Positions 2,456 to 64,000 of a stretch of DNA of 64,000 bases are shown piece by piece. The translations under genes and the position numbers were made by a program. This DNA comes from Candidatus Binatia bacterium (GTDB lineage Bacteria; Desulfobacterota; Binatia; HRBIN30), in assembly GCA_038245295.1 (NCBI GenBank), contig JBBRSP010000005.1, positions 160,001 to 224,000 on the forward strand. The letters run 5' to 3'. Each line of letters opens with the position of its first letter. Position 1 is the stretch's first letter. The notes beneath the pieces were generated by a model. It did not search any database and had not been told where the DNA came from. It was given only the letters and a program-made list of their open reading frames with translations.

Positions 2456-2526
2456 CAAGATCACCGACGGCCGCTGGCCTCGCGCAGGTCGATTAGGGAG
2501 GAGGTTGCGGCTCTCGCCATTCTCGT

Positions 2527-2598: not shown

Positions 2599-2639
2599 TG
2601 ATTCTCGCGATTGTCCGAAGAATCGCGAGAATCGCAACC
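2594..2639. repeat. 19-bp inverted repeat (hairpin)
   Basis: ggttgtgattctcgcgatt ... aatcgcgagaatcgcaacc, one G-T mismatch. Confidence 0.8.
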
Positions 2640-2649
2640 GCGTCCCCTT

Positions 2650-2910: not shown

Positions 2911-3113
2911 AGATCTGGTTCGACAAGGAAGGCGACTTCCTCGAGGTGCGTTTTTCCGAGAAGCCCGGCTACATGCGCGAGACGGACAACGATGCCGTGA
3001 TGGAGCGCGTCGATGAGAGTGGCGAAGTGCTGGGCTTCACGGTCATGGCGGTGAGCAAGTTCGACAAGGCACACCCGCTGACCGTTGAACTTTCGGAGGC
3101 GTTGCGACAATGA
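2895..3113 (+). CDS. DUF2283 domain protein (putative antitoxin)
   Basis: MAQTVKIWFDKEGDFLEVRFSEKPG...MERVDESGEVLGFTV pattern typical of DUF2283. Confidence 0.75.
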   Translation: MAQTVKIWFDKEGDFLEVRFSEKPGYMRETDNDAVMERVDESGEVLGFTVMAVSKFDKAHPLTVELSEALRQ

Positions 3114-3616: not shown

Positions 3617-3777
3617 AAAGCACAGCCAAAACCAAACCGCCCCAACTCGATACGCGCGCAAAGAAGATTCTGAAGTCCTTACTCGACGCACGCAAAGAAG
3701 CGGTCAAGTCGGCGCGCATGCATGGCGTGCCGGTAATCTACATGCGGGCGGGCAAGATCGTACGCGAACGCCCATGA
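3613..3777 (+). CDS. Small basic protein (54 aa), likely partner of the zeta-toxin-like ATPase
   Basis: ATGA overlap with upstream stop; MKSTAKTKPP...ARMHGVPVIYMRAGKIVRERP; below ORF-track cutoff. Confidence 0.6.
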   Translation: MKSTAKTKPPQLDTRAKKILKSLLDARKEAVKSARMHGVPVIYMRAGKIVRERP

Positions 3778-3778
3778 T

Positions 3779-3817
3779 CCATCCTGTCTATCCTGTCCAT
3801 CCTGTTAAAGTCGTTCT
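3779..3817 (+). repeat. ATCCTGT nonamer REP-like half element
   Basis: ccatcctgtctatcctgtccatcctgttaaagtcgttct; near-identical to 61598-61636. Confidence 0.75.
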
Positions 3818-3840
3818 TAGCGGTTGGTATTGAGGTAGTC

Positions 3841-41669: not shown

Positions 41670-41944
41670 CGTACATCCTTCCGCTCCCCCTTCAACCGCT
41701 GGCTCCATGCATTACCCGCGGCGCAAAGGCCCGAGGGAGGTGAGGTCACGGTATCCTCATCGGATTCGCCATGCCCAGCCGCCTTCGAGAGAATGCGACT
41801 GGGACGCATAACCCAGAGTTCCGAGAGTGGTCAAGCAACAACGCCCAGTGTCTAAATTATTTTTCGCTCGACAAACTGCGGCTTTATGCTCGCCGAGAAC
41901 CATTGCGCCCGACACCAACCGGCTCTAACAGCGAAGCTATTCCC

Positions 41945-43168: not shown

Positions 43169-46100
43169 TCACGGCGTACACAGCAGCCGCAGCATCGTGC
43201 GCTTGCCCTTCGGCCTCGGGAAGGTGCCATCCTTCGACACCGTACGAATCGTCAACCGCCGCTTGGCCTTGTCCGACGGCTTGGCGATCGCCACGAGATC
43301 CATCGCCATCGGCGCACTGCACAAGTTCGTCTGCGCGCCGGCGATAGGCACACCATTCGTATAGCCGGCATCCGGATTCTGCGGGTCGAGCAGGGCACTC
43401 AGGGCATTGTTCACCGCCGCGGTGTTCGTCAGCGCCAAAACACCCACGGTTGGTGCACTGGCAATCTTCAGCGGCACCGGTTTCACCAGGACCGAACTGA
43501 TGCCGGTCCTGGGCTGAAGACACTCCAAACTCGCGTCGGTCGTATTGAGACACATCACGACCGTCATCCGACAACGTCCTGTCGTCGGATCGGCGTCGCA
43601 TGTCGGATCGTTGTCCGCGCATGTCTGATCGCGATCGGGCAAGCTGAATTTGTCGAGGAGATTGCTTGGATTGACAACGAAGTACTCAAGCTGGCAACCG
43701 TTCTTGTCCTTCGCCGGCTTCGTACGCTCACCGCGAATGAAACCGCTGTACGTGCAATCATCGTTGCGGCTCGACGGACAGCCATCGATCGCCGTCGACT
43801 GATTGCCGTCGTCACACTGCTCGCCCGCGTCCGGCACACCGTTGCCGCAGCAATTCGGCACGAGCTCCGGCGCACAGACACCGCTGCGGCACGCGTTCTT
43901 GCAGAAGTTGTCATCATTACCGGCACACCCGTCGCCTTCGGCGCGGAACATATCGGTGCGGCATGCCGCCGCGATGCCGTCGCAAGCTTCCGCCACATCA
44001 CAAAACTCCGTCGCCGGACGGCAGACGACACCACTGGCGCGCAGGGCATCGGCCGGACAGTCCGTGCTGCTACCATCACACGTCTCCGCGACATCGCAGT
44101 CGCCGGCCGCGGCACGGCAAACAGACCCGCTCGTGCGTAAAGCTTCGGCGGCGCAGCCGTTGCTCACTCCATCGCAGCTCTCAGCAACATCACACCCGCC
44201 GACGGCGGCGCGGCAAACATTCGTCAGCTTGGCATCCGGAGGGCAGGCCTTGCCGATGCCGTCGCAGAAGTCGACCGCATCGCAAACTCCAGCCGCGGCG
44301 CGGCACGGGGTCGTATCAGGAGCAACAATGTCGTTCGGGCAATTGGGATCGAAGCCGTTGCAGTTCTCCACCAGATCACAGACACCCGCCGACATCCGGC
44401 AGGCCACCGTCGAGGGCTGCATCACATCGGCGGGACACTCATCGCTCACGCCGTCGCAGAAGTCGGCCACGTCGCAAACGCCGGCGCTGCCGCGACAAAG
44501 GATTGCCGTCGTCTTCTTCGCGTCCGCGGGGCATTGCGCTCCGCTGCCGCTGCACTTCTCCGTTTGGTCGCAGTCGCCGGCCAGCGCACGACACTCGAAG
44601 GTCGAGGGCTTGAACCCATCGGGCGGACAGGTCGCGCTGCTTCCGCTGCACACCTCCGCGATGTCACAATCACCGTCGGCGGCGCGGCATTCGACACCGG
44701 AACCGACCAGAACGTCGCTTGGGCACTGCTTGCCGTTTCCGTCACAGTAGTCGGCCACGTCACACCCGCCGGTAACGTTGCGACACAAGACACCGGGCGG
44801 CTGAATCGAGTCGGTGGGGCATTGCGTGTTCCCACCCGTACAAGATTCCGCAATGTCGCACGCACCGGTCGAGGCGCGACACTCGACACCACTCGCCTTG
44901 AGCTGGTCCGCCGGGCAACTGGTGGCGCTGCCGCTACACACCTCGTCGACGTCGCACGTACCGGCCGCGACACGACACACGAACCCGCTGGCTCGTAGAG
45001 TATCGGCGGGGCAACCATTCGAGGCGCCGTCACACACCTCGGCCACGTCACAAACATCGACCGCCAGCCGACAAACCGACCCACTCGGCCGCTTAGCATC
45101 GAACGCGGGACATGAGGCGCCGCTCCCCGAACACGTCTCCGCCTGATCGCAATCACCCACTGCCGCACGACACACAGTCGTATTCGGCTGGAACGCATTG
45201 GCCGGACAATCGTTTGTCGCCCCATCGCAAAGCTCAGCAACGTCGCAGACACCAACAGCGCCGCGGCACACAAACGTGTTCGGAACCTTCGCGTCGGGCG
45301 GACATTGTGCTCCCAACCCGTCACAGAATTCCGTCGTGTCGCAGTCGCCACCGGAGACGCGACAGACGACGCTGGAAGTCAGGGCCTCATCCGACGGGCA
45401 AGCCGGATTGGCGCCGTCACAGAAGTCGGCCACGTCGCAATCGCCGGCGAGCGGACGACAGAGCGTCGCATGACTGAGAATCGGATGCGTGCAGGTATCC
45501 TGCAGTCCGTCACATTGGTCGCTGGAGCACGGGAACCCGTCGTCGGTACACGCCGTCCCATTGGGCTTCTTACTGTCGCTCGGGCAGGTGACCGAGGCGC
45601 CGGTACAAGTCTCCGCCAGGTCACATTCGCCGCCCGCGGCACGACACTCGACGTTCGACGCCTTGAAGGAGCACGCGGAGCTGCAGCAATTCGGCGTCGT
45701 GCCGTTGGCGGCTCCCTGATCGCATTGTTCCTTTGTCTCGATCTGCGAATTGCCGCAGATGGGCAATGGCGCAACCGACCAGCCGGCGTCGGTACGGTTG
45801 TCGTCGAAGACCCACGCATTGCAACCGATCGGCATCACCGTCGTCGCCGCCGCGCCACCGACACCCTGGAATCCGACTGTAGCGGTCTGACCGCTCGCGA
45901 AGCGCTGATTGGTCGGATACTTCACGGCAATTACGTTGGAGCCCTCGTGAACCAGGATCTCCATCTTCATATCGTCGTTGCCGTCATCGCTGCTGGTCAC
46001 GGTATCGAGGAAGAAAAATGCCAGGAACGTGCGATTCGGCGCCGTCCCGACGGTACCATACTGAATCGTGCTGGCACCCGCCGTCTGCATGTCATCCCAA

Positions 46101-47649
46101 AAGCCGGCGATAAACGGATTAGTATGCTTCGACGTCGGCAGGCAGTCATTGACCGGATCACTGTTCCCCGCGGTATTGGAACCGAACTCCATCCAGCCGT
46201 TGGTCGACAAAACAGCGGTGCTGTAATTTGTCCCTTCAATGTTCACGCTGAACGGCAAATTGACGATCTGCGTCGCGTCGTTGCCGGAGAAGAACAGCAG
46301 CCCCGGAATATTGGTGGCATTGATGTCGTCGGGGCTGAAGGCTGTCACCGCATGCAGAGACATCGCTCCGAGCGTCTTGGGATGGACCGACCATCCTTCG
46401 TGGGCTGCGTCGTTGTCGTCGAGGATCTTTCCATTACAGGTCAGCGGATACGCGGCGGCGCTCGCGCCACCCGCCCCCTGGAACCCGATCGTGGCTGCCT
46501 GGCCGTTGGCCGTCGCGCCCTTGTCACGATAGCGAACACTCATCAGGCTCGATCCTTCGTGGATCTCAACTTGAAAACTCAGGTCGTCGGCTGAATTGCC
46601 TTCGACGGCCGGGTCGACGTCGACCTGTACGTCGACGACGAACGTCCGGTTCGGGCTACTGCCGACGCTGCCGTAACGAATGTTGGTTCCAATGGTCTGG
46701 TCGTCGTCCCAATACGCTGCCAGCAGCGGATTGGTGTGTGCGGCGCTGGGCAAACAGTCGTTGCTCGGATCGCTGTCGGCGGCGGTGTTGCCGCCAAACT
46801 CGAACCAGCCATTCGTTGAAATCGCCACGCTGTTGTAGGCGATTCCCTCAATCGTCACCGGGAACGGCAAACCGACGTTCGACACGGTGTCATTGCCCGA
46901 GATCGTCGCAAAGCCGGTGATGTCGTCCGGGCTCGATTGCGTCATGCCCGACAGCGTCACAAGGCCGGCGCGGCCGGCATCGACCGACCAGGCATCTTCG
47001 GGGCGGTTGTCATCCAAAATCTTACCGTTGCAGACCAACCCCTGCACGGTCGTCGCAGCACCGCCGCCGGCGCCCTGGAAACCAATGGTTGCGGTTTGGC
47101 CGTTCGCCAGGTTCTGCGAATTCCGATACCGCACGGTGATCAGATTCGACGTTTCGTGGAGTTGCACCTGGAAGCCAACGTCGTCGGCGCCGTCGTCGGA
47201 GCTAACCTTGGTGTCGAGAAAGAAATCGGCGAGGAAGACGCGGTTTGGGCTCGATCCCTCCGTGACGTAGCGGATGGCGCCGCCGTCGGCAAGCAGTCGT
47301 TGGTTGGATCACTATCGCCCGACGTGTTGCCGCCGAACTCGATCCAACCATTCGTCGACAGGGTGAGCGTCGAGTAGTTCACTCCTTCGATCTTGAAGGA
47401 GAACGGCAGGGTGACGTTCTGGGTAACGTCGTCGCCGCTGACGGTAAGCATGCCCGGCGCGTTGGTGGCGTTGAGGTCGTCCTCGCTGAACGCCATCCAC
47501 CCGCCCATCGACATCGCTGCCTCGGCGCGAGACGGCGCGGAGGAGAGGCAGATGCACCACAAAAGAGACGTGACCGCGACGCACCATCGGGCCGAAGGTC
47601 CCGCGCTCTTCCCGATACCGGCAATGCAACGCCGCAAGCGTTTCGCCAT
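43169..47649 (-). pseudogene. Large secreted adhesin-like protein (3 nidogen/NIDO-like repeats, 17 disintegrin-like repeats, DUF4215-like units, C-terminal domain) split by a frameshift near 47280
   Basis: ORFs 47140-47700 and 43169-47167 hold the two halves of repeat 1; about 16-17 residues present in repeats 2 and 3 are missing at the junction. Confidence 0.78.
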
Positions 47650-48025: not shown

Positions 48026-51000
48026 TCAGCGGCACGTGACGCTGCCTCCGCTCGACGACGCCACACAATCAGGATTCGTACCGGCCGGATTGAACGTGAA
48101 GCTGGCGCATTGTCCCGACGCCTGCTGATCCAGCCCACCGAGGACCAGCGTCAGACGCAACGGCAGGAGCAACGGATCAACGTGGAAGTCAGCGTCACGA
48201 GCGCTCAGGGTCACACGGAACAAGCCGGGCGTTGTTGCCGACTTGTCAGTAACGACGATCCGGCGAACACCGCCGCCGACCCGATTGCTCGGATCGCGAT
48301 AGGTCCACTTGGTCTTCGCACCGTTCACCTTCCAACCCGGCGCTTTGCTGCTGATCGGTCCGCCGCGTGGGATGACGCGATCAAATACGGGAGCGCCGTT
48401 CTTGTCGTTGACGCGCAGACGCAAGCCGTTGGCGATCGGGTTGATGGCGGGTGTCGTTGGCGTCACCACCCACTCACCCTTCAGCGACAGGCGCTCGTCG
48501 CCGGCGGGGACGAGATTCTTGCTGATCACCAGACTCGGCACACTGAGCATCGAAGCACCGGCGCAGGTGATCGAGCTCGCCGGCACACTGAGGTCACTGC
48601 CGGGATCAGTGCCGGCGTCACGCTCGTCGCCGTCGAAGACGGTATCGCCATCGCGGTCGACACCGATTTCCAGGCCGGAGCCCAATGGCACGGCGGTGAA
48701 CGTCAGTTCCTGCCCCGCCGTCGCAGCGGCGGCGCGCAGACTTGCGTCACTGACGGGCGCTTCGGCGGCGCGATCCATCTGGAACAGCCCGGCCGCGGTT
48801 CGATATCCCCCGCGCATCTCGCCCGACAAAGTTCCCTTCACCACCACATCGCACTCACCAACCGCTGCCCGCGCCAGGAAAAGATCGATGCGCGGATCGG
48901 CCACCGCCGAGTTGGTGCTGTCGAGTGTCACCTGTTGGCCAACGATCGGCGCCAGATTCGTGTCATACGCGAAGACGAAGTCTTCGACGTTTTGCCGCGT
49001 CGGGTTGTCGGGAAAGGAGAATACCGGCGAACGATAGAAGCGATTGGTTGTGTCGATACTACCATCGTGAAGAACGCCGTAGCCGCGGATCTGATCCCCC
49101 TGGAAGGTGTGATTACCACTGCCGGCGCCCGTGTTGGGCATCCCGAACATACCGACCTTCGTATAGACGTTGCGCAAGTGCGGGATCTTGAAGTGTTGCG
49201 GTTCACCTTCGAACGTCGAAAACCCGTCGGTACCGAATTTGCCGGTAAGCGGGTCGAGCACATGGCAACCGTTGCAGGTGAGGCCACCATCGACGGGCGT
49301 ATTGAAGTAGAAGTCGTGCCCGAGTTGCTGCTCAGGCGTCAGCGAATTATCGAGTTTGCGGATCGGATTGGGCGGCGGAATGACCTGCAGGATGAAGTCG
49401 GTAAATGCCTGCATCTCTTCATCGGTCAATGCCGTCTTGCGACCCAACAACCCACCAAACGCCGCGTTGAACTTCTTGAACGCCGCCACTTCGTCGAGCG
49501 GATCACCGCCGATATCGTTTCCACCGGTGCGATCACCGCGCCAGTGCATCGGGCCATTGTTCGCCATGCCGCGCAAGGTCTGCGTCGTCATCGGGCCTTT
49601 CATCGGATGAAAGTCGGGATCGCCCAAGGGTCCGAGACGGAATGGATTTGGATTGTTCAGCACGCTGTCGTCAGGATTGCCCAGATCCCACGCCAGATTA
49701 TCGAGGTCGCCAAAGGTGTGGCAGGACGAACACGACGCCTCGCCGTTACTCGATGTCAGGGTCGCATCGTAGAGGAACTTACGACCGTTGACGACACTGA
49801 AGGGTTCGGGATTCTGCAAGCTGACGTGTTGCGTCTCCTTGTGTTTGATCGGATCGAAGACGGAAATGCCATTGTCGAACCGCGTCAGGACGTAGAGGCG
49901 ACCCACCGTCTCCTGCAGCACCAGGCCGGTCGGGCCGCCGCCCGGAATGGTGAGTTGCTTGGCGCTGCTCGGCACAAAGGTGTCGGCCTCGAGCTCCGTC
50001 GTGTTGAAGATGCCCACCTTGCTTGACCCAAAGGCCGCAACGTACAGCGTCGCACCGTCGCTGGTGACGGCCATGCCAGTAGGCGTCGCCAGACTCTTGC
50101 CACGTACCGACGTCGACGACGGCACCGTAGCGTAATTGATATGTTTGTTGAGATGCCGCGGCATTACCGACAAGCCGCTCAACACCGTGATGCGCGATTC
50201 GTGCAGATGTCCGCGCACCGTCGAGCCGCCGAACTCGCCCGGCCCCTCGAAACGAACTTCATTACGCGCCTCGGTGTTGCTGACGTAAACGCGACCACTC
50301 ACCGGGTTGACGGCCATATTGAAAAGCACCGTGCCGACGCCGCTGTAGGCCGAGCTCTGCGCCGGAATCGGCAGCGACGCGTCGATCACGAAAACGTCGT
50401 AGTCCGGCAAACTGAAATTGACCGCGTTGTCCCAATTGCGCGCCAGTCGGTCTTCCCAGTGGCCGCTGGTCGGGTTGAACTTGACGATCAAGCCGGTTTC
50501 CGGCGCCGGCGTGCCCTGGAAGTTTGTCGTCGGACCGGGCAAGCCGCCCGGCATCTGAACACCCTGCACCAGACACGGAGGCACCACTGGGCCGCCGTTG
50601 CAGACAAAGGTTTCGTTGATCGTCGTGGTTTGGTTGCCCGAGTGAAACACCGCTGCGTAGACGCTGTTGCCGTCTGGACTGACGGCCAGGGCTCGCGGCG
50701 TATCGCCAAACAAGTTCAGAACCACCAACGGTGTGCCGGTCAACGTTGTACCAAGGTTCGTCGTGTCGAAAACGAAGACACTGCTGCGCGGTGTGCTCGG
50801 GTTGCGCAGGCGCGGATCGTTCGGATGATTCTGGCCACGCCGGGCCGTGGTGATGAAAGCGCGCGTCCCGCCGCTACCGGCGAAGACGATGTCGCGCGGC
50901 TCGTCGCCGACGAGCAGAGTCCGAGTTACGCGGGCCGGAGAGGTGCTCACATCCACGATGCTGACACTGTCGGACAGGTGGTTGACGACCCACACTTCCG

Positions 51001-51280
51001 TGTTGCTTGCCGCCGCAACGGCGACTGGCTCGAGCCCGACGGTGACGGCTCCTGTGTGCGTCAGGCTCCCATCAATACCGAGGGTGAAGATCTCGAGTTG
51101 GTTGTCCGGTGTATTCACGGCAAACAGCCGCGTTCCATCGGGAGACAGAGCAAGCGGCCGCACCTGGCCGCTTTCGAACGTCACAAATGCCAACGCCGGC
51201 GTCGGTAGCGCCATGACGCCGCAAGCCAACACCATCAACCCAACCGAGACCAATCGATGAACCGTGAACCGAACCTTCAT
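48026..51280 (-). CDS. Secreted YVTN/YncE beta-propeller protein fused to a di-heme cytochrome c peroxidase-like domain
   Basis: Signal peptide; FESGQVRPLALSPDG, VGLEPVAVA, VGDEPRD blades; CSSCH and CNGCH; FKIPHLRN; start 51280 or 51295. Confidence 0.8.
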   Translation of the reverse strand: MKVRFTVHRLVSVGLMVLACGVMALPTPALAFVTFESGQVRPLALSPDGTRLFAVNTPDNQLEIFTLGIDGSLTHTGAVTVGLEPVAVAAASNTEVWVVNHLSDSVSIVDVSTSPARVTRTLLVGDEPRDIVFAGSGGTRAFITTARRGQNHPNDPRLRNPSTPRSSVFVFDTTNLGTTLTGTPLVVLNLFGDTPRALAVSPDGNSVYAAVFHSGNQTTTINETFVCNGGPVVPPCLVQGVQMPGGLPGPTTNFQGTPAPETGLIVKFNPTSGHWEDRLARNWDNAVNFSLPDYDVFVIDASLPIPAQSSAYSGVGTVLFNMAVNPVSGRVYVSNTEARNEVRFEGPGEFGGSTVRGHLHESRITVLSGLSVMPRHLNKHINYATVPSSTSVRGKSLATPTGMAVTSDGATLYVAAFGSSKVGIFNTTELEADTFVPSSAKQLTIPGGGPTGLVLQETVGRLYVLTRFDNGISVFDPIKHKETQHVSLQNPEPFSVVNGRKFLYDATLTSSNGEASCSSCHTFGDLDNLAWDLGNPDDSVLNNPNPFRLGPLGDPDFHPMKGPMTTQTLRGMANNGPMHWRGDRTGGNDIGGDPLDEVAAFKKFNAAFGGLLGRKTALTDEEMQAFTDFILQVIPPPNPIRKLDNSLTPEQQLGHDFYFNTPVDGGLTCNGCHVLDPLTGKFGTDGFSTFEGEPQHFKIPHLRNVYTKVGMFGMPNTGAGSGNHTFQGDQIRGYGVLHDGSIDTTNRFYRSPVFSFPDNPTRQNVEDFVFAYDTNLAPIVGQQVTLDSTNSAVADPRIDLFLARAAVGECDVVVKGTLSGEMRGGYRTAAGLFQMDRAAEAPVSDASLRAAAATAGQELTFTAVPLGSGLEIGVDRDGDTVFDGDERDAGTDPGSDLSVPASSITCAGASMLSVPSLVISKNLVPAGDERLSLKGEWVVTPTTPAINPIANGLRLRVNDKNGAPVFDRVIPRGGPISSKAPGWKVNGAKTKWTYRDPSNRVGGGVRRIVVTDKSATTPGLFRVTLSARDADFHVDPLLLPLRLTLVLGGLDQQASGQCASFTFNPAGTNPDCVASSSGGSVTCR

Positions 51281-51369
51281 GCATGCCTCCCGCATCGAAG
51301 GCGCGACCGTATCGTAGCGCCAAGGCCTTACTCAATAATTTTTCTTCGTAAAAAATGCGTGCTTGGCGA

Positions 51370-54685: not shown

Positions 54686-55849
54686 TCATCGCGGCGAAAA
54701 TCCTCCGGCATGCGGATGACAGGTGAAGCAGGGAAACGAAACGTGCGTCTCGCCGCTGCCGTCGCTGCGATAAAAACGCGTCTGCGTATGGCAGGTCTCG
54801 CATAACCCCGTGCCGGGACGCGACGGGCTCGCTAACCCGCCCTCGGCCAGACCCGCCAGTTGTGTGAACTCCACCGGGCGTGCCGCGCCGCTCGGAAGCG
54901 TGACCGATTCCTGGATCAGGAATAGATTGTCGCTGCCGTGCGGCGTGTGGCAACTCGTGCACTCTGCCGTTCCGGCAGGTAGATCGTGATGCGTACGCTG
55001 ACTGGCGTGACAGCTCGCGCAAGTTGGCACGGTTTGGTGCCCCGGGCCCGTCTGCCCCGCCTCCCTCTCGGCGTGACAGTTCGCACACTCCAAGCCAAGA
55101 CTGCCGTGCCCCGCCGATCGCGCCGCTTGCTGTGTCACCGACGCGTGGCAGTATCCACACGCGCCGAACTGCTGCCCGCTGGACAACCGATGCGACGGAC
55201 CAACAAACGAGGGCACGATCTCGGGCCCCGGGATTTCACGATGCTGCAAGCCATAGAATCCCGGCGCAGCATCGGCGTGGCAGCCAACACAGGGGAGCTC
55301 CGCCGCAAACGGTGCAACCGCCTTCGCCAGATCGTTGTGACACAGGGCGCAGGCGCCAAACGACGCCTCCGGGCCGGCCATGTGCGGCGTGGGCGCCGGC
55401 ATCGGCACGACGCTGGAGTCCGGCAGACTGCGATGCCGCGATCCATACGGCAATGTCAGGCGGCTCACATGACACACTTCGCAGCTCAGCTCCGGAGCCA
55501 ACACGTGGATCTCCGACGCGCGGTCGCTGTGGCAATAGGCGCACGATCCCAAACTCTCGAGATCTCCGAGGCTGTGGCTGGCGCCAATGAACGACGGCAC
55601 GAGGGTGCCGGACGGAATCATCCGATGCCCCGGCCCGACGAATCCGGGAATGCGGTCGGCATGACACTCCTCGCAACGCAACTGACGCCCAGTTGGCTCC
55701 ATAGCGGCGCTTTGCGTCGGGTGACAAAAGGCGCACGTGCCGAACAATTGAGTGATTGGCGGTGGCTCGCCGGCATATTGTGGCGCCCCCTGCCCACCAC
55801 CGCACGAGCTCAGCACGGCGATAACGACGGCAAGCAGGGCGCGGTTCAT
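54686..55849 (-). CDS. Multiheme c-type cytochrome lipoprotein (12 CxxCH)
   Basis: Lipobox LSSC; CAFCH, CEECH, CAYCH, CEVCH, CALCH, CVGCH, CGYCH, CANCH, CASCH, CTSCH, CETCH, CFTCH; ATGA overlap with upstream gene. Confidence 0.88.
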   Translation of the reverse strand: MNRALLAVVIAVLSSCGGGQGAPQYAGEPPPITQLFGTCAFCHPTQSAAMEPTGRQLRCEECHADRIPGFVGPGHRMIPSGTLVPSFIGASHSLGDLESLGSCAYCHSDRASEIHVLAPELSCEVCHVSRLTLPYGSRHRSLPDSSVVPMPAPTPHMAGPEASFGACALCHNDLAKAVAPFAAELPCVGCHADAAPGFYGLQHREIPGPEIVPSFVGPSHRLSSGQQFGACGYCHASVTQQAARSAGHGSLGLECANCHAEREAGQTGPGHQTVPTCASCHASQRTHHDLPAGTAECTSCHTPHGSDNLFLIQESVTLPSGAARPVEFTQLAGLAEGGLASPSRPGTGLCETCHTQTRFYRSDGSGETHVSFPCFTCHPHAGGFSPR

Positions 55850-56430
55850 TCTGCGCCTCGCGCGTGACAGTGTCGGCAAAGGCTGCCGTCGTCGACACTG
55901 GCTCGCAGTGCCCGGGTTGGCGATGCCGACAGCTCCGCCGTGGCCTTCTTTTCACCGGAGCTTTCTAGCTGCGCCGCCACTTCCTGACGGACAGCCTGCC
56001 GCACCGCCGCGGCGACCGGATTGGAGCTTGGGGCCCGCGCCGCCGTCAACCAGGCGTCATCCATGACGCGCGGATCATGAAACAGATGGCAGGTGCCGCA
56101 GTAGATCTGCCCGGTGTCGGTCAACGGCCACTCGACGTGGCCTTTACGCGGCTCTCCCAGGAGCCGCCGCACTTTGTCCGCCGGCACGCCGAGATGTTCC
56201 GCCGCCCCGGCATGCAAGGTCGTTGAGTGACATAGGGTGCAGGTTTCTTCTTTCGAACGCGACAGCGTTAGATCGTCGGCGTGGCAAAAGCTGCACTGGC
56301 CGTCGTCTGTCTTGCCCTGCGCGTTCAGCATCATGTGCGGGCTTCCACTGTCATCGGCAAATACCGGCGCCGCGCTCAACACGACGATGGACAACACCAC
56401 CATCTGCCGTGCCCAACACAAACCGTTCAT
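55846..56430 (-). CDS. Periplasmic tetraheme c-type cytochrome
   Basis: Signal peptide (APVFA-D); CSFCH, CTLCH, CGTCH, CRHCH; ATGA overlap. Confidence 0.85.
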   Translation of the reverse strand: MNGLCWARQMVVLSIVVLSAAPVFADDSGSPHMMLNAQGKTDDGQCSFCHADDLTLSRSKEETCTLCHSTTLHAGAAEHLGVPADKVRRLLGEPRKGHVEWPLTDTGQIYCGTCHLFHDPRVMDDAWLTAARAPSSNPVAAAVRQAVRQEVAAQLESSGEKKATAELSASPTRALRASVDDGSLCRHCHARGAE

Positions 56431-56729
56431 CGCACCACCCCATTGTCTCCATGGCACATCGTACAACTGGCAATCCCCTGATTGCGGACGACGGTCCGTA
56501 CTTCGGCGAGATCGAAATCGGCGATGCCGGTGCGATTGACGACGTGAATGCTGCGGATCTCATGGCAGGCGAAGCAGTCGGGCCGTGACCAACCCGTCGG
56601 ATGTTCGCTGCGCTCGAGGATCAATCCTTGCGGCGAGTTGAGCAGGTTGCCGTAGTCTTCGGCGGGGCGCGACCCATCGCTACCGCAGCCAAACAAACCC
56701 ACGAGCATCAAGATCACCCACTGCCTCAT
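56427..56729 (-). CDS. Small diheme cytochrome c lipoprotein
   Basis: Lipobox LFGC; CFACH, CTMCH. Confidence 0.8.
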   Translation of the reverse strand: MRQWVILMLVGLFGCGSDGSRPAEDYGNLLNSPQGLILERSEHPTGWSRPDCFACHEIRSIHVVNRTGIADFDLAEVRTVVRNQGIASCTMCHGDNGVVR

Positions 56730-57367
56730 GGCGCCCCCTTCAGCCGACCCTGCTGGTGGCAGTTGGTGCAGTAGTCAGGCCGATGACAACTGCCGCAACG
56801 CGACGGGTCGGCACTGGCTTCGATAGAGTGGGTGAACCGAAAGTTACGATCGTGCATGCGCGTCTGGACCGTGTCGCGGCGCTCATGGCAATCGATGCAA
56901 TACGTTTGTTGATGGCAATTTTCGCAGCGCGCCGGATTGCTACGCGCCATACTCGGGTGGACCTGCAACCAGGCGACCTGATGATCTTCCGGCAGCAGCG
57001 GGCGCATGTTTTCGTGACAACTGAGACAACGCTCCGGGGCCGCCGTGATCTTGCCCTCGCCGGCGAGATGACAGGTATGGCAGGCGACACTGCTCGGATG
57101 CATGGCATGCGCCGACAAGGCGCGCCCCAGCGCCTCCTTGGCGTCGATCTTCAGATCGAAATGGTGGCAGTCGATACAGGTGAGATGCTGCTCTGCAAAC
57201 ACGGCGTCGTGTTTGTCATGACGAAAGGCGCGGCGCGCCTCGCGCGTGCTCTGCGAAACCGATCCGGTCCGCTGCCGCAGGTACTGGTTGTCCGGCAGAA
57301 ACTGGCGGCACGCCGTAACGCCGAGCGCCAAGAACACCAGGACAAGGGCGATCGCACAACGCTTCAC
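56726..57367 (-). CDS. Heptaheme c-type cytochrome lipoprotein (cytochrome c3/c7-like N-terminal part)
   Basis: Lipobox VTAC; FRHDKH; CIDCH, CHTCH, CLSCH, CENCH, CIDCH, CGSCH, CTNCH. Confidence 0.87.
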   Translation of the reverse strand: MKRCAIALVLVFLALGVTACRQFLPDNQYLRQRTGSVSQSTREARRAFRHDKHDAVFAEQHLTCIDCHHFDLKIDAKEALGRALSAHAMHPSSVACHTCHLAGEGKITAAPERCLSCHENMRPLLPEDHQVAWLQVHPSMARSNPARCENCHQQTYCIDCHERRDTVQTRMHDRNFRFTHSIEASADPSRCGSCHRPDYCTNCHQQGRLKGAP

Positions 57368-58776
57368 GACGGTTGCCCTCCCGGCAACACTTGCTGCATC
57401 GCATCTCCGTGTTCGAGCGGCGCTCCTTTGCGATAGCGAAAGTCGTACGACACGTAGAACCCGACTCGCAGATCATCGGCGAAGCGCGCGTTGCGGTTGC
57501 CCTCGAGACTGATTTCAGCCAGCAGGCCGGGAGCGAGCTCGTACCCGAGGCCGACGCGGGTACCGACCGCCGTGGCGCTGCGGTTGGACCGTTTGCTGTA
57601 GGCCGCGATATCAACCTTGGTGCGCAGCACGATGCGTTCATAGACGAAGTTGTCGTAGAGGAACCGCCCGCCGTCGACGTGGCCGAGCGAGCCTTCGAGG
57701 GAATAGTATTCGACGCGCACGCGTTCGAGACCGTCGCCCCCGGGTAGCCATGTCACACCGACGTCGCCGAGATGACCGTTGACGAAGGATGCATCCTGGC
57801 GCTCGTAGCGTTGATACGAATAGTCGGCGTAGGCGGAAATCGTCGCGCTGAGCGCCTGCCGGAGGCCGCCGCGAAAGCGTAGCATCTGACTCAAGGAGAA
57901 TAGCTCGAAGATTGGATCTTCGCGGCGCGCCGGATCGGCGGTCAGACGCTCGCCCTGGTCTTGCGGCTTGTAATACGTAGTCTCGAAATTCGCCGACAGA
58001 CGCGCCTGGCGCAGGAACACCTGGGCGCCGAGATTGGCGAAATCGAAGTTCTGCGTCTTCGCATCGAGGGAGGCGGTACCGTAAAGCGACGGCGTGCCGA
58101 CAACGTGAGCCAGCACCTGATTGCCGGTCAGCGACAACAATTGACGCAGAGTTCTTTGATCGCGTTGGTGTTGCAGGAACCCAACACTGAAGGTGCCGTC
58201 GCGGAACGCTGTCGTGCGCATACTGGCGCCCACGATTTGTTCGTCTTGCGATACTTTCTCGGAGCCGTAGGTCGGCTCGTAGAATCGCGGCTGTCCGCCG
58301 AAAACGCTGAGCGCCACCGGCCACGAACCTGGAGAAAAACGCAGACGACCGGCATCGGCGACGAAGGCGCCGCCGGGAACCTCGCTGATGAATTGGCGCC
58401 CCAACTTGGCTTCGACACCGCTCACCGTGCCGCGGGCCGATGCTGCGTAAAGCTCGGTGGCGTCGTCATGGCCCGCGACGTCACGCTCCAACCGAAAGTA
58501 ACTGTCGATCTCAGAGCCGTGCAGGAAGCGGTCGACGCCGAGCTTGCCGTAAAGGTTCACCGGCGCCTCCGTCCGGTTCGATTGATCGCCTTCACGCACC
58601 TGCCCAAGCACGGCAAAGCTGCCGTTGACGTCCTGCGCCGCGACCATGGCGGCACAGCTCCCCAGGCAGAGCACGGCTATGCACCCGCGCAGCCGCCAGC
58701 GGCCGGCCTGTAGGCGCGCCGCGATCGCGCTGAACCAGGCCGGCGGTGGTCGCCGCATGGGTCGCGGCTGCAACAT
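57364..58776 (-). CDS. Putative outer-membrane beta-barrel (porin) of a porin-cytochrome complex
   Basis: Signal peptide, no CxxCH, alternating amphipathic strands, AKLGRQFI, near-terminal VGFYVSYDF; sits between cytochrome genes; TGATG coupling at 58776. Confidence 0.7.
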   Translation of the reverse strand: MLQPRPMRRPPPAWFSAIAARLQAGRWRLRGCIAVLCLGSCAAMVAAQDVNGSFAVLGQVREGDQSNRTEAPVNLYGKLGVDRFLHGSEIDSYFRLERDVAGHDDATELYAASARGTVSGVEAKLGRQFISEVPGGAFVADAGRLRFSPGSWPVALSVFGGQPRFYEPTYGSEKVSQDEQIVGASMRTTAFRDGTFSVGFLQHQRDQRTLRQLLSLTGNQVLAHVVGTPSLYGTASLDAKTQNFDFANLGAQVFLRQARLSANFETTYYKPQDQGERLTADPARREDPIFELFSLSQMLRFRGGLRQALSATISAYADYSYQRYERQDASFVNGHLGDVGVTWLPGGDGLERVRVEYYSLEGSLGHVDGGRFLYDNFVYERIVLRTKVDIAAYSKRSNRSATAVGTRVGLGYELAPGLLAEISLEGNRNARFADDLRVGFYVSYDFRYRKGAPLEHGDAMQQVLPGGQPS

Positions 58777-61127
58777 CAGCGGGCGTGGGCGGACGAAACC
58801 GGTTCGGCGCGACCTTCTTGGTGGCACACGAGGCACGCCTCGCCGCCATTCGATGCCGTCTGGGTGTCGGCGTGCGCCAGGGCCTCGTCGCTGTCGTGAC
58901 ACGACGTACAGGCCGAGGTGATTGGTCCGGTGTGCCCGATCTCCACCTCGTTCCCGGTTGCCGGGTCGAGATGCGTGCGCCGCGTTGCCAGGGATGGGCC
59001 CGGGAACGGCGGCAGTAGGTAAGACGTGCCGACGTGGCAGGTCGAACAGTTGCGACGATCGCCGACGTAACGAACCTCACCGAAGTTGTTTACGGTATAG
59101 TTCGCCGGAGCCGCGCCGAAGCCGTAGATGAGGTACGGTTGCTGATTCAAATCTTCCCCAGTGTGGATCTTGTGGATCAGCACCTTGAAGTCGATCGTCG
59201 CGGTCTCCGCCGCGGCCGCTACGGCAGCGGGGTCGCGCCGGCGTCGCGCCGAATCATTCTGCGTCGGGTTGTGACACAAGACGCAGTACTCGGTCTGATT
59301 GCGCAGATTGCCGTGGATGCTGAAGTCCTTCGAGAACTGGCCGTGGCACTTGCCGCACTTGGCATCGTCAACCACGCTACGCCGCACTTCGGCCGTCGAT
59401 CCATCGACGACGAACGTCACAACCGAGTTGGTCGCCGCCTCCTCGACGGTCTTGGGCGAAATGCCTTCCTCGACACTGAGGTTGACCGTGCGTCGCGCTT
59501 CGACCCCGAGTGCCCATGTGCCGGTGGCAGCGGCCGGGATGGCCGCCGCCGGAGTGTATGTGAAGATGCCGTCGCCATCTGGGCCGGCAAGCGTTCCCGT
59601 AGCCCCACCGCCGACGGCCGTGGCCAAGAGCAGGCGCGAATAATCGGACGTCGGACCCGCAATCGTGAAGGCCAGGCGATTGAGCCCGGCAAGGCTCGGT
59701 AGCGGGCTCCCCGCGTTGCCCGAAACCTTGAACGAGATGGTCGGCGTTTCCCCACGCGCGTGTGAAGCGAGCCCGAGCAACTCGATGTTGAGACCGGCGA
59801 GTTGCCGCGAGCGCTCTGGAATCGTGTGGGCTCCGGCGATCGAGACGTCGAACTCCTTGTCGGTCGCGTTGGTATGACAGAAGGCACAGTCGCCATCGGC
59901 GAAGCCGCGACTCTGGAAGTGATTCGTACCTGGCGGCCCGACGGTCGTTGTCGCGAGCGACGGGTTGACGTCATCGTGGCAGCTGACACAAGCGCCTACC
60001 GACGGCTGCTCGCGATACGCCGCGGCGGTCGGACCATCGGCGTGACAGACCTGGCAATCCAGCGTGGTGCGAGGGAATCCCACCCCGGTTACCGAACCGT
60101 CGGCCTTTTTTTCGGCGAAGATGGATTCACTGCGCCCGGTAATTGCGTACTTGGCGCCCGGGGCTCCGTTGACGATCGACGGCAGATCTTTGCCCTGGTG
60201 AATCTTGTGGATCATGTTGCGGAAATCGATGCTGACACCGTTCGGGTCTTGCGCCGCTTCATTGTGGCACAAGGAGCACAGGCGTACCTCGCGCCGGTTA
60301 CCGTGCAAGATCAACGGATCGTGACAGCTGTTGCACCGGGCCGTGGTGGTCGCCATGCGGACCTCGGCGACACCGCCATTCGGCACAAAATCGAAAATCG
60401 GATTGGCACTGAGTTGTTTACCCTCAAACGTGCGATCCACCTGCATCCCAACCGCGAAGGTCTGGCTGCGGCTCACCGCGGCAGGAATTGTCGCCTTGAA
60501 TACATAACGATAGATCCCGCTCGTTGCGTCGATGATCTCGATGGTGCCGCCGCTGTCATAACGCGGCCTCACGGCGTCCAGATCGTTGACGTAACGGGTG
60601 AATTGCTTGTTGAACTCGCCGCCACCCGAATAGTGTTCAAGATGAGCGATGGTCAGACGAACCCGTGCCTGTTGAGGGTTCTGTGCCGCGCTGAGCACGG
60701 CAGAGATCGGCTTGCCCTCGGCGTCCGTCAGCGAGAATATGACCCGCACTTCACCGGCGGCGGAAATTTCGGCGGTACTGATCGTACTCAGCAACCCGGC
60801 GCCGGCGGCGTCACCCGACGCCGGTGTCGTCGCCGTCGGTGCCACGGTTGGGCTGGCGGTCGGCGTCGGCCCACCCGGACAAACATCGAGAAGGTGATTG
60901 ACGGCCTGAATGACATCGCCGATTGTCGCGTTCAGGCCACCACAACTAGAACTCGGGGTGTTTCCGAGCGCGATGTTGACCAGCGTGACGACTTCCTCGA
61001 CCGTCACGGCTTGGTCCGCATTGCAGTCCCCCGTGCAGGAAGACTGGCCGCGACTCGTTGAGGTCAGGAGTAACAGGACAACCAGACTTGCCAAGCCGAC
61101 GGCTGGCACGTGTACTCGTGTTCTCAT
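58776..61127 (-). CDS. OmcA/MtrC family decaheme c-type cytochrome with N-terminal dockerin-like Cys module
   Basis: Ten CxxCH in two pentaheme blocks (CNSCH, CSLCH, CQVCH, CVSCH, CAFCH; CGKCH, CVLCH, CSTCH, CTSCH, CLVCH) alternating with beta domains; IDF..(M/L)IHKIH twice; ATG 61127. Confidence 0.9.
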   Translation of the reverse strand: MRTRVHVPAVGLASLVVLLLLTSTSRGQSSCTGDCNADQAVTVEEVVTLVNIALGNTPSSSCGGLNATIGDVIQAVNHLLDVCPGGPTPTASPTVAPTATTPASGDAAGAGLLSTISTAEISAAGEVRVIFSLTDAEGKPISAVLSAAQNPQQARVRLTIAHLEHYSGGGEFNKQFTRYVNDLDAVRPRYDSGGTIEIIDATSGIYRYVFKATIPAAVSRSQTFAVGMQVDRTFEGKQLSANPIFDFVPNGGVAEVRMATTTARCNSCHDPLILHGNRREVRLCSLCHNEAAQDPNGVSIDFRNMIHKIHQGKDLPSIVNGAPGAKYAITGRSESIFAEKKADGSVTGVGFPRTTLDCQVCHADGPTAAAYREQPSVGACVSCHDDVNPSLATTTVGPPGTNHFQSRGFADGDCAFCHTNATDKEFDVSIAGAHTIPERSRQLAGLNIELLGLASHARGETPTISFKVSGNAGSPLPSLAGLNRLAFTIAGPTSDYSRLLLATAVGGGATGTLAGPDGDGIFTYTPAAAIPAAATGTWALGVEARRTVNLSVEEGISPKTVEEAATNSVVTFVVDGSTAEVRRSVVDDAKCGKCHGQFSKDFSIHGNLRNQTEYCVLCHNPTQNDSARRRRDPAAVAAAAETATIDFKVLIHKIHTGEDLNQQPYLIYGFGAAPANYTVNNFGEVRYVGDRRNCSTCHVGTSYLLPPFPGPSLATRRTHLDPATGNEVEIGHTGPITSACTSCHDSDEALAHADTQTASNGGEACLVCHQEGRAEPVSSAHAR

Positions 61128-61550: not shown

Positions 61551-61636
61551 TTGACAGGATGGACAGGATTAACACGACAAGAATGTGTTCCCCCCTTCCA
61601 TCCTGTTTATCCTGTCCATCCTGTCGAATTCGTTCT
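61551..61636. repeat. GACAGGAT/ATCCTGTC nonamer REP-like palindrome
   Basis: gacaggatggacaggattaac ... ccatcctgtttatcctgtccatcctgtc; right arm matches 3779-3817. Confidence 0.8.
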
Positions 61637-61772
61637 GCGGGGGGTGGGGTTGGGTTGCGGGCGGAGCCTTGATCCGGGCTGCCCTTGGTCCATTGACATG
61701 ACTCCGACCGAGGCCCTTAGGTGAACTGTGAGCGGGGGTGCCGCCTCCGCCGCGGAAGGAAGGGCAGCTACC

Positions 61773-64000
61773 ATGAACGCCCAGCCAACATTCCCGGATG
61801 TCACGCATGTCGACGTTGCGCTTGATAATGTCCGACACCCTGCGGCCGGCCTTCATCCCAAAAACGCCGCCATGAAGGCACGACTGCTTGCGGCCGACCA
61901 TTGGCTGTGTATCGAGCGCGCCCGCTACGCCACCGAGGTCTATGGCGAAACCGAAGGCATGCACCCGTCTCTCCGCGCCGCTCTCTGCCTCGAGCGTGTG
62001 CTGGAGAAGATGACGGTGCGTATCGACCCCGAAGAACTCCTCGTCGGCAACCGCTCCTCGCGCCCCATCGCTCCCCCCATTGCGCCGGAACGCGGCGACT
62101 TCACCTTCGTCTTCCGTTACCTCTTCGAAGACCTTGAAGCCTTTGGCTACCGCATCGCCCCGCAAGACAAGGCGCGGCTCTTCGACGACATCATCCCGGC
62201 ATGGGAAGGCAAGACCGTGCGTGATGCGAAGGTCACCGCGTTCGAGGCGCATGGGCTGAGCAGCAAGCTCAACACTTCACCGCGCGAGCTCCTGCACAAG
62301 CTGCGCTGCTTCGGGCCGCACACACTCAGCAAGCTGCTGGCCCCGCGCAACGGCAGCCGGGGGAATCGGCTGGCACGGCTGCCGCGCCTCCTGCGCGCCA
62401 TACAGGCCGGCGCGAAGGACAACCTGAAGGGACGCGGGCGCTGCACCGACACGCAGGCGCACATCGTCCCAGGCCACAAGAACGTACTGGCTGTTGGCTT
62501 CTCTGGCATCCGCGACGCCGCGCACGCACGCCTCACCGCGGCGCCGTGCAGCGACTCGCAGCGTGCCTTTCTCGACGGTGTGGTACGCAGCTGCGAGGCG
62601 ATGCATGCCTTCTCGGGTCGCTTCGCAACCCTGGCGCGCGCCCAGGCGGAAGCGACAACCGACACGGCGCGGCGTTCGGAGTTGCTGGCCATCGCGGCCA
62701 GGTGCGAGCGTGTACCCTGGCTACCGCCACGGAGCTTTGTCGAGGCCGTGCAAGCACTCTGGTTCACCCAGAACGCCGCAATCATCAGCTACGGCGCCGG
62801 CAGCGGCATCACGCCCGGTCGTGTCGACCAGCTCCTCTTTCCATTCTTTGAGGCCGATCTCGCCAGCCGTGCCATCACTCGCGAACATGCATTGCGCGTG
62901 CTCGAGGAGCTCGTCATCAAACTCAACGACAACGTCGTCATCTGGCCCAACATCGGCGGCGTGGAACTCAACCATCTGGGGTCGGACGTCGAGAACATCA
63001 CGATCGGCGGCGTCGACGCGAAAGGCGACGACGCAACGAACGAGCTGTCGTGGCTCTTCATCGAAGCGATCGAGAACACCAACCTCGCGACAACGGCCTC
63101 GTTCCGCGTCTCACACCGGAGCCCGCCCGACTTCGTGCGGCGGGTCGTCGAGATGCATCGGAAGACCAATTCGCCGGCGTTCCTGAACGACGAGACGGCG
63201 ATCGCTGCCCTGGTGAACGACGGGTACTCGATCGAGGCGGCGCGCCAGTACTGCCTCGTGGGTTGCGTTGAGCCGAGCGGTAACGGCGACACCTTCGGCG
63301 CAACCGGCGGCACGAAAGTCTACTTCCCAACCGCGCTCGATCTCGTGTTCAATCGCGGCCGCACCTCGTTCTTCGGCAACCAGGATGGCCCGGACACCGG
63401 TGATCCGCTTGCCTTTCGCACCTTCGATGAGCTGCTCGCGGCGTTCTTCCGCCACCTCGAAGTAATGGTTGGACAAGTCACCGAAGCGACACGCCTGCGC
63501 GACCGCATCTGGGCGGAGCGCTTCCACAATCCGCTCATTTCCTGCACCATCGACGGTTGCATCGAGAAGGCGCAGGACATGACCGCCGGCGGCGCTCGCT
63601 ACACATTCGGCGCCGTCGGTGGCGGCGGCCTCGCGACAGCCGTGGACTCGCTGGCAACGGTCCGCGCCCTGGTGTTCGAACAGCGCAAGGTATCGATGAA
63701 GGAACTGTTACGGGGCCTCGCCACCAACTTTCGCGGCCGTGAAGCGCTGCGGCAGCAGCTGCTCAACGGCCCGCGCTTCGGCAATGATGATCGCCGGGTC
63801 GACGAGCTGGCGCGCCTGATCGTCGACCGCTTTTGCCAGATGGTGCGTGCCGAGCCCACGGCGATAGGCGGGCACTATAAGGCGAGCCTGATCTCCTATG
63901 GGCTCAACGTCTACGAGGGCGCGCTCGAGCCGGCGACACCCGATGGGCGCCAAGCTGGAGAGCCGCTGTCGAACAGCATGTCACCAAGCAATGGCGCCGA
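61773..64000 (+). CDS. Glycyl radical enzyme (PFL family), truncated by window end
   Basis: ORF absent from track because it has no stop in the window; CIERARY, IDPEELLVGN, GRVDQLL, NITIGG, YCLVGCVEP, RFGNDD, ATPDGR. Confidence 0.88.
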   Translation, partial: MNAQPTFPDVTHVDVALDNVRHPAAGLHPKNAAMKARLLAADHWLCIERARYATEVYGETEGMHPSLRAALCLERVLEKMTVRIDPEELLVGNRSSRPIAPPIAPERGDFTFVFRYLFEDLEAFGYRIAPQDKARLFDDIIPAWEGKTVRDAKVTAFEAHGLSSKLNTSPRELLHKLRCFGPHTLSKLLAPRNGSRGNRLARLPRLLRAIQAGAKDNLKGRGRCTDTQAHIVPGHKNVLAVGFSGIRDAAHARLTAAPCSDSQRAFLDGVVRSCEAMHAFSGRFATLARAQAEATTDTARRSELLAIAARCERVPWLPPRSFVEAVQALWFTQNAAIISYGAGSGITPGRVDQLLFPFFEADLASRAITREHALRVLEELVIKLNDNVVIWPNIGGVELNHLGSDVENITIGGVDAKGDDATNELSWLFIEAIENTNLATTASFRVSHRSPPDFVRRVVEMHRKTNSPAFLNDETAIAALVNDGYSIEAARQYCLVGCVEPSGNGDTFGATGGTKVYFPTALDLVFNRGRTSFFGNQDGPDTGDPLAFRTFDELLAAFFRHLEVMVGQVTEATRLRDRIWAERFHNPLISCTIDGCIEKAQDMTAGGARYTFGAVGGGGLATAVDSLATVRALVFEQRKVSMKELLRGLATNFRGREALRQQLLNGPRFGNDDRRVDELARLIVDRFCQMVRAEPTAIGGHYKASLISYGLNVYEGALEPATPDGRQAGEPLSNSMSPSNGA

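Follow-up and report, generated by a model that had tools for sequence, protein, structure and literature searches.

Whether six overlapping genes at positions 54,686 to 61,127 of the DNA analyzed here encode an electron conduit through the outer membrane, and in which direction such a conduit would run, are the questions raised by this locus. The DNA (referred to below as the window) is a stretch of 64,000 nucleotides (nt) from a Candidatus Binatia bacterium (assembly GCA_038245295.1, contig JBBRSP010000005.1), corresponding to C5:160001-224000 of a host genome of 6.63 Mb in 129 contigs that is 96.6% complete. Binatia are common in soils and sediments and are uncultured. Published surveys of Binatia genomes credit them with methylotrophy and the degradation of alkanes, and also with CO oxidation and denitrification. 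Searches of the literature turned up no account of extracellular electron transfer by Binatia, and the surveys, their supplementary tables aside, describe no such conduit, in keeping with the original prediction for this DNA, which had placed the operon in a lineage not known to reduce or oxidize metals. On the evidence set out below, members of the Binatia very probably possess a conserved porin-cytochrome (Pcc)-type conduit that is complemented by a surface cytochrome of MtrC type and by three additional cytochromes, and the operon in the window is highly likely to specify a porin-cytochrome conduit.

Gene content and layout of the operon

The locus is occupied by six consecutive open reading frames (ORFs) on the minus strand, designated g1 to g6 from the highest coordinate downward. 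The CxxCH motif occurs 10, 0, 7, 2, 4, and 12 times in their products (35 in total), and a motif count of the six proteins found no CX3-4CH or CxxCK motifs. The original prediction, which had been made from the letters alone, had described six overlapping minus-strand genes with 35 CxxCH motifs and three lipoboxes, one of them for a decaheme of OmcA/MtrC type and one (57364-58776) for a small barrel. All of the genes, motifs, and lipoboxes were recovered at the same positions, and the two assignments were borne out by the family and structural comparisons described below.

The g1/g2 junction is TGATG, a 1-nt overlap, provided that g2 starts at the ATG at 58776. An alternative in-frame ATG at 58758, 18 nt downstream, would leave a 17-nt gap after g1, and the public gene call for g2 (427 amino acids, aa) starts later than 58758 and is without a signal peptide. 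The remaining junctions are 4-nt overlaps, GTGA between g2 and g3 and ATGA at each of g3/g4, g4/g5, and g5/g6. DNA of the operon was present in three sediment metagenome DNA runs, all from one study; no RNA run was listed.

The modeled g2 barrel and its predicted g3 partner

The second gene, g2 (57364..58776, minus strand), encodes a heme-free outer-membrane beta-barrel of up to 470 aa with an ordinary signal peptide and 0 CxxCH. It had no match in Pfam or NCBIfam at E ≤ 0.1 and, by profile search, no sequence relative in the PDB. A hidden Markov model (HMM) of g2 matched the OmbB-type porins of Geobacter sp. end to end (E 1.1e-19 to 1.7e-16), and alignment of the two families with hhalign gave 98.8% and E 7e-17 over 381 columns. 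By these profile comparisons, g2 is a remote homolog of the Geobacter Pcc porin OmbB. The g2 profile found no second porin of this type in the host genome.

The structure of g2 was predicted with AlphaFold2 from a 37-sequence alignment, yielding a 22-strand barrel with no plug (mean predicted local distance difference test, pLDDT, 81.6; predicted template modeling score, pTM, 0.72). Searches with this model by Foldseek and VIA-align returned outer-membrane barrels only. The best structural matches were the 22-strand barrels of TonB-dependent receptors (Z ~16, ~360 residues, root-mean-square deviation (rmsd) ~4.2), and MtrB (6r2q_B) was matched at Z 14.6 with 321 residues aligned and an rmsd of 6.9. 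The fold scored alike (Z 14-17) against porins, TonB-dependent receptor barrels, ushers, and MtrB, with no family standing out.

The stop codon of g2 overlaps g3 (56726..57367, minus strand), which encodes a heptaheme lipoprotein of 213 aa with 7 CxxCH and the lipobox VTAC. Searches of family databases with g3 gave only generic c3/c7-type matches, and its profile found only a weak match to NrfA in the PDB (E 3e-4). Aligned with hhalign against an 8-heme OmaB-like set, the g3 family gave 98.9% and E 2.3e-17 over 175 columns, nearly full length; the comparisons of g3 with OmcB-like sets, g4, and g5 were all weaker (≤ 63%). At the level of profiles, then, g3 is a homolog of OmaB. The lipobox Cys20-Arg21 is invariant in 21 of 21 g3 sequences.

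In order to predict the complex, g2 residues 45-452 and g3 residues 20-213 were modeled together with four hemes in three runs, alongside three controls. The interface score ipSAE was 0.84, 0.80, and 0.83 for g2-g3 (median 0.83), with 0.00 for the best control; the mark reached by g2-g3 is also reached by 116 of 157 solved complexes and by 2 of 215 mismatched pairs. The runs shared at least 89% of contacts, with a partner pLDDT of at least 69. Predicted contacts on g3 fall in residues ~108-203, which hold five of the seven heme motifs, and those on g2 involve almost every strand, including the invariant motifs GGQPRYFEP and PGGDGLE. This pattern is as expected of a cytochrome threaded through the lumen of a barrel, and g3 is accordingly modeled as sitting inside the g2 barrel. 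Passage of electrons through the outer membrane by way of g2-g3 is predicted on the strength of such models.

Conservation in Binatia

Of 40 relatives drawn from the host's family and order, 27 had a homolog of g2, and a search of genome contigs returned at least five loci with g2 relatives, all from Candidatus Binatia. Among 20 loci that were fetched, g2-g6 occurred in all 20 and g1 in 19, in which all six genes stood in the same order, in line with the original prediction, which required the genes to be conserved together. The exception was L025, where g1 is replaced and g2-g6 are kept. The replacement (L025 2625-5558, plus strand) is a 977-aa, 9-heme lipoprotein with an N-terminal collagen-like Gly-X-Y region.

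Heme counts are invariant in four of the gene families, at 10 in g1 (19/19), 7 in g3 (20/20), 2 in g4 (20/20), and 4 in g5 (19/19 of those that could be delimited). In all 25 Binatia loci examined g3 adjoins g2. No conserved flanking genes were found in the 20 loci besides an NrfH-like cytochrome in 5 of them.

A class-wide sample gave a match at E ≤ 1e-30 in 28 of 200 other genomes, a tally that takes in one unpublished genome (G489) on which nothing else stated here depends. By family, these were 6/7 in f1, 2/2 in f2, 1/3 in f3, 8/13 in f4, 6/20 in f104, and 5/19 in f105, with 0 in 14 other families. In f104 the genes run g2-g3-g4-g5-g6, and g1 either comes last or lies on the other strand; f105 carries a more divergent set in the order g1-g4-g2-g3-g5, without g6. 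Five of the six families thus remain linked although the genes occur in three different orders, which is strong evidence for a functional unit; g6 is accessory to it.

These results bear on whether there is a conduit at all. Read otherwise, g2 would be a commonplace barrel for diffusion or uptake, and the cytochromes would form a periplasmic network for electron storage or detoxification that happens to share its operon. The missing family annotation of g2 and the equal likeness of its model to many generic barrels (Z 14-17) are compatible with this. Set against it are the full-length profile homology of g2 to Pcc porins, the 22 strands without a plug domain, the predicted g2-g3 interface for which controls score zero, and the association of g2 with g1, g3, g4, and g5 across three gene orders; we consider this alternative reading very improbable.

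The putative surface cytochrome g1

The first gene, g1 (58776..61127, minus strand), encodes a decaheme cytochrome of the OmcA/MtrC family (783 aa, 10 CxxCH). It scored 380.6 bits against TIGR03507 (cut-off 209.3), covering profile positions 4-672 of 672, and matched PF22113 (domain II/IV) in two stretches. A profile of the 18-member g1 family matched MtrF (3PMQ, E 3.9e-30) and UndA (3UCP, E 3.1e-27) in the PDB, where a single-sequence phmmer search with g1 found no match.

From its N-terminus onward, g1 has a Sec signal peptide, then a dockerin-like module with cysteines (C31, C35, C62, C83), then a linker rich in Pro and Thr, and last an MtrC-like body. Two kinds of N-terminus occur in the family. 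In 12 orthologs there is a lipobox (...GCG...), and in the window and seven other loci there is the dockerin-like module (CxGDCNxDxxVTVxE...); the Pro/Thr-rich linker follows either anchor type. Dockerin-like g1 is paired with a long g6 of at least 12 hemes in 8 of 8 cases and lipobox-type g1 with a short g6 of at most 6 hemes in 11 of 12, a pairing that is an observation and not a test, since the loci are related.

Elsewhere in the genome, a two-repeat Cys-containing dockerin-like module (CxGDCNGDGxVTIDE...VNIALG...C..D.N.DG.VTI) was found at the N- or C-terminus of 60 ORFs, g1 included; one example is C5:225629-227857, just past the end of the window. The module may be a lineage-wide tag for surface anchoring or sorting. 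No partner of it was identified.

Passages of Edwards et al. (2015, PMC4486940) place a CX8-15C disulfide in domain III of all clades of Shewanella outer-membrane cytochromes, where it gates flavin binding and oxygen reactivity. Non-heme Cys residues were found in the MtrC-like body of 0 of 18 g1-family sequences (the window and 17 orthologs), and this disulfide is absent. The surface chemistry of g1 may thus differ, which would suit a real conduit that serves a non-metal acceptor such as elemental sulfur or polysulfide, selenite or tellurite, iodate, or organic quinones. Shi (2014, PMC4245776) notes the presence of pcc clusters also in bacteria without reduction of solid Fe(III) or Mn(IV) and proposes other substrates for them. 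Against a non-metal acceptor, no molybdopterin or rhodanese-type catalytic subunit is encoded in or beside the operon, and OmcA/MtrC-family proteins are best known as reductases of minerals and flavins. On balance such an acceptor appears quite unlikely.

The remaining cytochromes and electron supply

Both g4 and g5 had only generic c3/c7 matches in Pfam. The small diheme lipoprotein encoded by g4 (56427..56729, minus strand; 100 aa, 2 CxxCH, lipobox LFGC) keeps its two hemes and its lipobox in 20/20 orthologs, and hhalign gave a weak resemblance (90.4%) to the lipidated N-terminus of OmcB-like proteins. The tetraheme cytochrome encoded by g5 (55846..56430, minus strand; 194 aa, 4 CxxCH) has a signal peptide without a lipobox, and four hemes with a non-lipoprotein signal peptide were kept in 19/19 delimited orthologs. 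Given that hhalign found no convincing full-length match of g5 to OmaB- and OmcB-like sets, it is regarded as a generic tetraheme protein.

The last gene, g6 (54686..55849, minus strand), encodes a dodecaheme lipoprotein (387 aa, 12 CxxCH, lipobox LSSC). Repeat analysis at the protein level resolved it into three 64-aa diheme repeats and a conserved C-terminal six-heme core. The core matched the middle of the 333-aa chain A of PDB 6R2Q (E 3.9e-7 with the single sequence, 8.4e-10 with the profile), which we take to be MtrA despite an odd molecule name in the table. Against TIGR03508 (MtrA/DmsE), g6 scored 44.9 bits, under the cut-off of 192.2. An AlphaFold2 model from 20 sequences was of low confidence (mean pLDDT 47.1, pTM 0.24), and no shape is claimed for g6. 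The lipobox is kept in 20/20 orthologs, and the heme count ranges from 4 to 22: four loci have 4 hemes, seven have 6, three have 18, and single loci have 7 (L025), 12 (L015, as in the window), 14 (L017), 16 (L021), 20 (L032), and 22 (L028).

In 5 of the 20 loci, the cluster has beside it, in the same orientation, a candidate for electron supply. It is a membrane-anchored six-heme cytochrome of ~505 aa with an NrfH/NapC-like core that matched TIGR03153 at E ~1e-14, below the cut-off. The host genome has a copy that is 58% identical, at C23:79431-81000 (L053 1441-3010).

In all, 29 ORFs with at least four CxxCH were counted in the host genome. Two further multiheme cytochrome clusters were seen, at C19:5032-17827 (8/4/5/10/13 CxxCH) and C32:6919-22381 (11/9/4/13/18 CxxCH).

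Proposed mechanism and direction of electron flow

In the mechanism proposed for the operon, g5 would be a soluble periplasmic tetraheme carrier that takes electrons from an inner-membrane quinol dehydrogenase of the NrfH/NapC type. The g2 barrel would sheathe the C-terminal five-heme part of g3, as homology and controlled structure prediction suggest, and g1, judging from the role of its family in Shewanella, would be the terminal oxidoreductase at the cell surface, tethered presumably by its dockerin-like module and Pro/Thr linker in place of a lipid anchor. More speculatively, g4 could be an adaptor from the barrel complex to g1, and g6, with its variable heme count, could be a surface extension. 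Electrons would go outward to insoluble or extracellular acceptors, for example Fe(III)/Mn(IV) minerals or humic substances. A Pcc-type conduit across the outer membrane working in this way, outward flow included, is the explanation that we judge probable.

Outward flow, taken by itself, is moderately favored because an MtrC-type terminal cytochrome is retained and because an NrfH/NapC-type cytochrome lies beside the cluster in some relatives. The same architecture could be run inward, with Fe(II), Mn(II), reduced minerals or humics, or partner cells supplying the periplasm with electrons for aerobic or nitrate-dependent lithotrophy. No sequence feature fixes the direction of flow, and oxidizing porin-cytochrome conduits (MtoAB, PioAB) are among those treated by Shi (2014, PMC4245776). 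Metagenome-assembled genomes (MAGs) of Binatia, as reported in PMC11264602, come mostly from oxic depths and carry genes for denitrification, besides those for methylotrophy and alkane degradation, which is also compatible with electron uptake. Inward flow is opposed by the tendency of mtr clusters for Fe(II) oxidation to lack mtrC (described in the same account by Shi, 2014, PMC4245776), set beside the retention of g1 in 19 of 20 loci; by the glycyl-radical enzyme encoded next to the operon, which points to an anaerobic option; and by the membrane cytochrome of the NrfH/NapC type, a kind typical of quinol oxidation, that neighbors the cluster in 5 of 20 relatives. We therefore regard the inward alternative as unlikely.

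Several points weigh against an outward-running conduit of the kind preferred here. Only profiles detect the remote homology that links g2 to OmbB and g3 to OmaB, and profiles of beta-barrels and multiheme proteins can inflate such scores. The g2-g3 prediction used our own alignments and four of the seven hemes, unlike the calibration of the tool, and its pass may reflect likeness to the analogous MtrAB, whose structure is solved. The lipobox of g3 is invariant, whereas Shi (2014, PMC4245776) describes OmaB as periplasmic. In this genome g1 is without a lipobox, and its surface location thus rests on analogy. The roles given to g4, g5, and g6 are guesses. The NrfH-like copy of the host lies on another contig (C23), and a +1 frameshift splits it into ORFs of 419 and 102 aa; it may be a pseudogene or the result of an assembly error. 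Finally, there are the oxic provenance and the gene content of the Binatia MAGs (PMC11264602) and the occurrence of Pcc clusters in bacteria without reduction of solid Fe or Mn (Shi 2014, PMC4245776), both introduced above.

Genomic surroundings

Upstream of g1, a 600-bp gap separates the operon from a divergent gene at 61728-63998 (plus strand, running past the window end), whose product is a glycyl-radical enzyme and falls in the PFL2/glycerol-dehydratase family (TIGR01774, E 2.4e-114). To judge from the sequence of its product, this gene indicates a capacity for anaerobic metabolism. The gap holds a 17-nt inverted repeat with perfectly matching arms (GACAGGATGGACAGGAT and its complement) at 61553-61569 and 61609-61625, which folds at -29 kcal/mol. 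Given that the 17-mer occurs 8 times and its 13-nt core 26 times in the genome, a small dispersed repeat is likelier than an operon-specific operator.

Promoter-like and terminator-like sites were counted between 54000 and 62000 and compared with shuffled sequence. Three promoter-like sites were found (1.4 ± 1.2 in shuffles), none of them upstream of g1, and two terminator-like sites (6.1 ± 2.7 in shuffles). As these counts are not clearly above the shuffles, there is no clear promoter or terminator signal in this interval.

Three genes downstream of the operon, 48026-51295 (minus strand) encodes a secreted protein of 1089 aa with YVTN/lactonase-type beta-propeller repeats and two CxxCH, which has a weak likeness to the beta propeller of hydrazine synthase subunit beta (E 2e-10). 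Two large Cys-rich secreted proteins, unusual for bacteria, are encoded farther along the minus strand: one of 1332 aa (43172-47167) with very strong matches to the disintegrin domain (PF00200, E 1.5e-77) and one of 664 aa (39717-41708) with DUF4215 repeats. At the other end of the window, 320-5316 (plus strand) is a possible fragment of a defense island, with a Schlafen-group-3-like helicase, a zeta-toxin/AAA_33-like kinase, and a type I restriction-modification methylase (HsdM).

Implications for Binatia

A conserved conduit offers a hypothesis for how Binatia survive anoxia at oxic-anoxic interfaces and, if true, would make them a candidate new player in Fe/Mn and carbon cycling. From genomes, which are all that is known of them, Binatia appear as aerobic methylotrophs and alkane degraders. 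A more far-reaching and tentative possibility, which we would put forward as doubtful at present, is that Binatia include electroactive bacteria that couple oxidation of C1 compounds or hydrocarbons to extracellular respiration of minerals or humics by means of a Pcc/MtrC hybrid of their own, built from five to six proteins. In this hybrid g6 would set the reach in 64-aa diheme steps, from 4 to 22 hemes, and g1 would be attached by a lipid or by a dockerin-like module shared with ~60 other secreted proteins. The PDB contains no sequence relative of any Pcc-type complex, and the compact and well-conserved Binatia version could therefore be a useful structural target.

Comparison with known conduits

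Shi et al. (2014, PMC4245776) characterize pcc clusters by porins of 18-22 strands, neighboring cytochromes of 5-14 hemes that pair and co-evolve with the porin, highly diverse outer cytochromes, which most of the clusters have, and 2-9 genes. In the window, the porin corresponds to g2, with 22 modeled strands and full-length homology to OmbB-type porins, and the adjacent 5-14-heme partner to g3, which overlaps the g2 stop and has 7 hemes. Outer-membrane lipoprotein multiheme cytochromes are represented by g1, g4, and g6, with g1 being a lipoprotein only in the 12 lipobox-bearing orthologs.

When 300 other genomes of the same GTDB phylum were scanned with the g2 profile, 12 weak matches emerged, two of them in one genome and 5 kb apart. 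In that genome, of a Geobacter sp., the profile matched only the two OmbB-type porins, and its loci are tandem units of a porin (404 aa), an 8-heme protein (~235 aa), and a large lipoprotein cytochrome, a 12-heme lipoprotein there being named OmcB. The operon resembles OmbB-OmaB-OmcB of Geobacter sulfurreducens (Liu et al. 2014; Shi et al. 2014, PMC4245776) in that a small porin gene is followed by a multiheme gene of ~210-240 aa, lipoprotein multiheme cytochromes are encoded in the same cluster, and the strand count lies within 18-22. It differs in that g3 has 7 hemes rather than 8 and an invariant lipobox, and neither an OmcB ortholog nor an OrfR/OrfS regulator is present. An OmcA/MtrC-family decaheme, encoded upstream of the porin, is the large outer cytochrome here, three extra cytochromes (2, 4, and 12 hemes) belong to the conserved set, and identity to the Geobacter Pcc proteins is too low for single-sequence searches.

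With Shewanella MtrCAB (PDB 6R2Q) the operon shares the combination of a barrel-sheathed multiheme cytochrome, here a predicted one, with a surface decaheme of the OmcA/MtrC family, and the g6 core resembles part of MtrA. Unlike MtrCAB, its 22-strand barrel lies outside the MtrB family, and MtrB aligns worse with it (rmsd 6.9) than 22-strand barrels do; the g1 family is without the CX8-15C disulfide, and g1 in this genome is without a lipid anchor. The original prediction of no recognizable MtrA or MtrB holds as far as family cut-offs go, and has to be qualified by the likeness of the g6 core to the middle of MtrA. For MtrA/DmsE (TIGR03508, cut-off 192.2) the best score was 44.9 in the operon (g6) and 76.4 in the genome, on another contig. 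For MtrB/PioB (TIGR03509, cut-off 240) g2 gave no NCBIfam match at E ≤ 0.1 and none was found genome-wide, a genome-wide negative that carries little weight since TIGR03509 matched no control genome either.

The Ext clusters of Geobacter (ExtABCD, ExtEFG, ExtHIJKL) are multi-gene sets of a porin, lipoprotein cytochromes, and a dodecaheme cytochrome. The operon is like them, going by their general description, in having a porin, lipoprotein cytochromes, and a dodecaheme cytochrome. No gene-for-gene match to a described cluster was found, with Ext compared by description. Given that g2 and g3 are homologs of OmbB and OmaB detectable with profiles, the core of the operon appears to be a Pcc module, and the whole is less non-canonical than the proposal had it.

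Nor did the pairing prove unprecedented. The Desulfurivibrio-type Pcc cluster ('Group II' of Shi 2014; loci L050 and L051) also joins a Pcc-type porin to an OmcA/MtrC-family lipoprotein. Its porins matched the g2 HMM at E 1e-10 to 4e-12, and the gene order is the porin, a 10-heme plus 8-heme core, and then an 11-heme lipoprotein of 808 or 829 aa, which scored 221.8 bits against TIGR03507 in L050 (808 aa, above the cut-off of 209.3) and 192.0 in L051 (below it). The L050 MtrC-like protein has a collagen-repeat match too. Unlike the Binatia operon, this cluster has a larger porin (~490 aa) that is only partly alignable, partners of 10 and 8 hemes, an MtrC-like protein of 11 hemes that is 23-26% identical to g1, no equivalents of g4, g5, and g6, and a different gene order. 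PMC12545173 reports iron oxide respiration by D. alkaliphilus, together with transcription of Pcc cytochromes and of a homolog of OmcA, and a paper of 2025 describes variable positions of MtrC-family genes within Desulfobacterota (PMC12133095). By these sequence comparisons, Binatia are not alone in combining a Pcc porin with a cytochrome of the OmcA/MtrC family.

The operon mixes modules that the literature treats as unrelated, joining a surface cytochrome of MtrC type to a putative Pcc barrel and its core cytochrome, and the mixing extends to a heme lipoprotein of variable length, to lipid versus dockerin-like anchoring, and to an MtrC-type protein without the oxygen-sensing disulfide.

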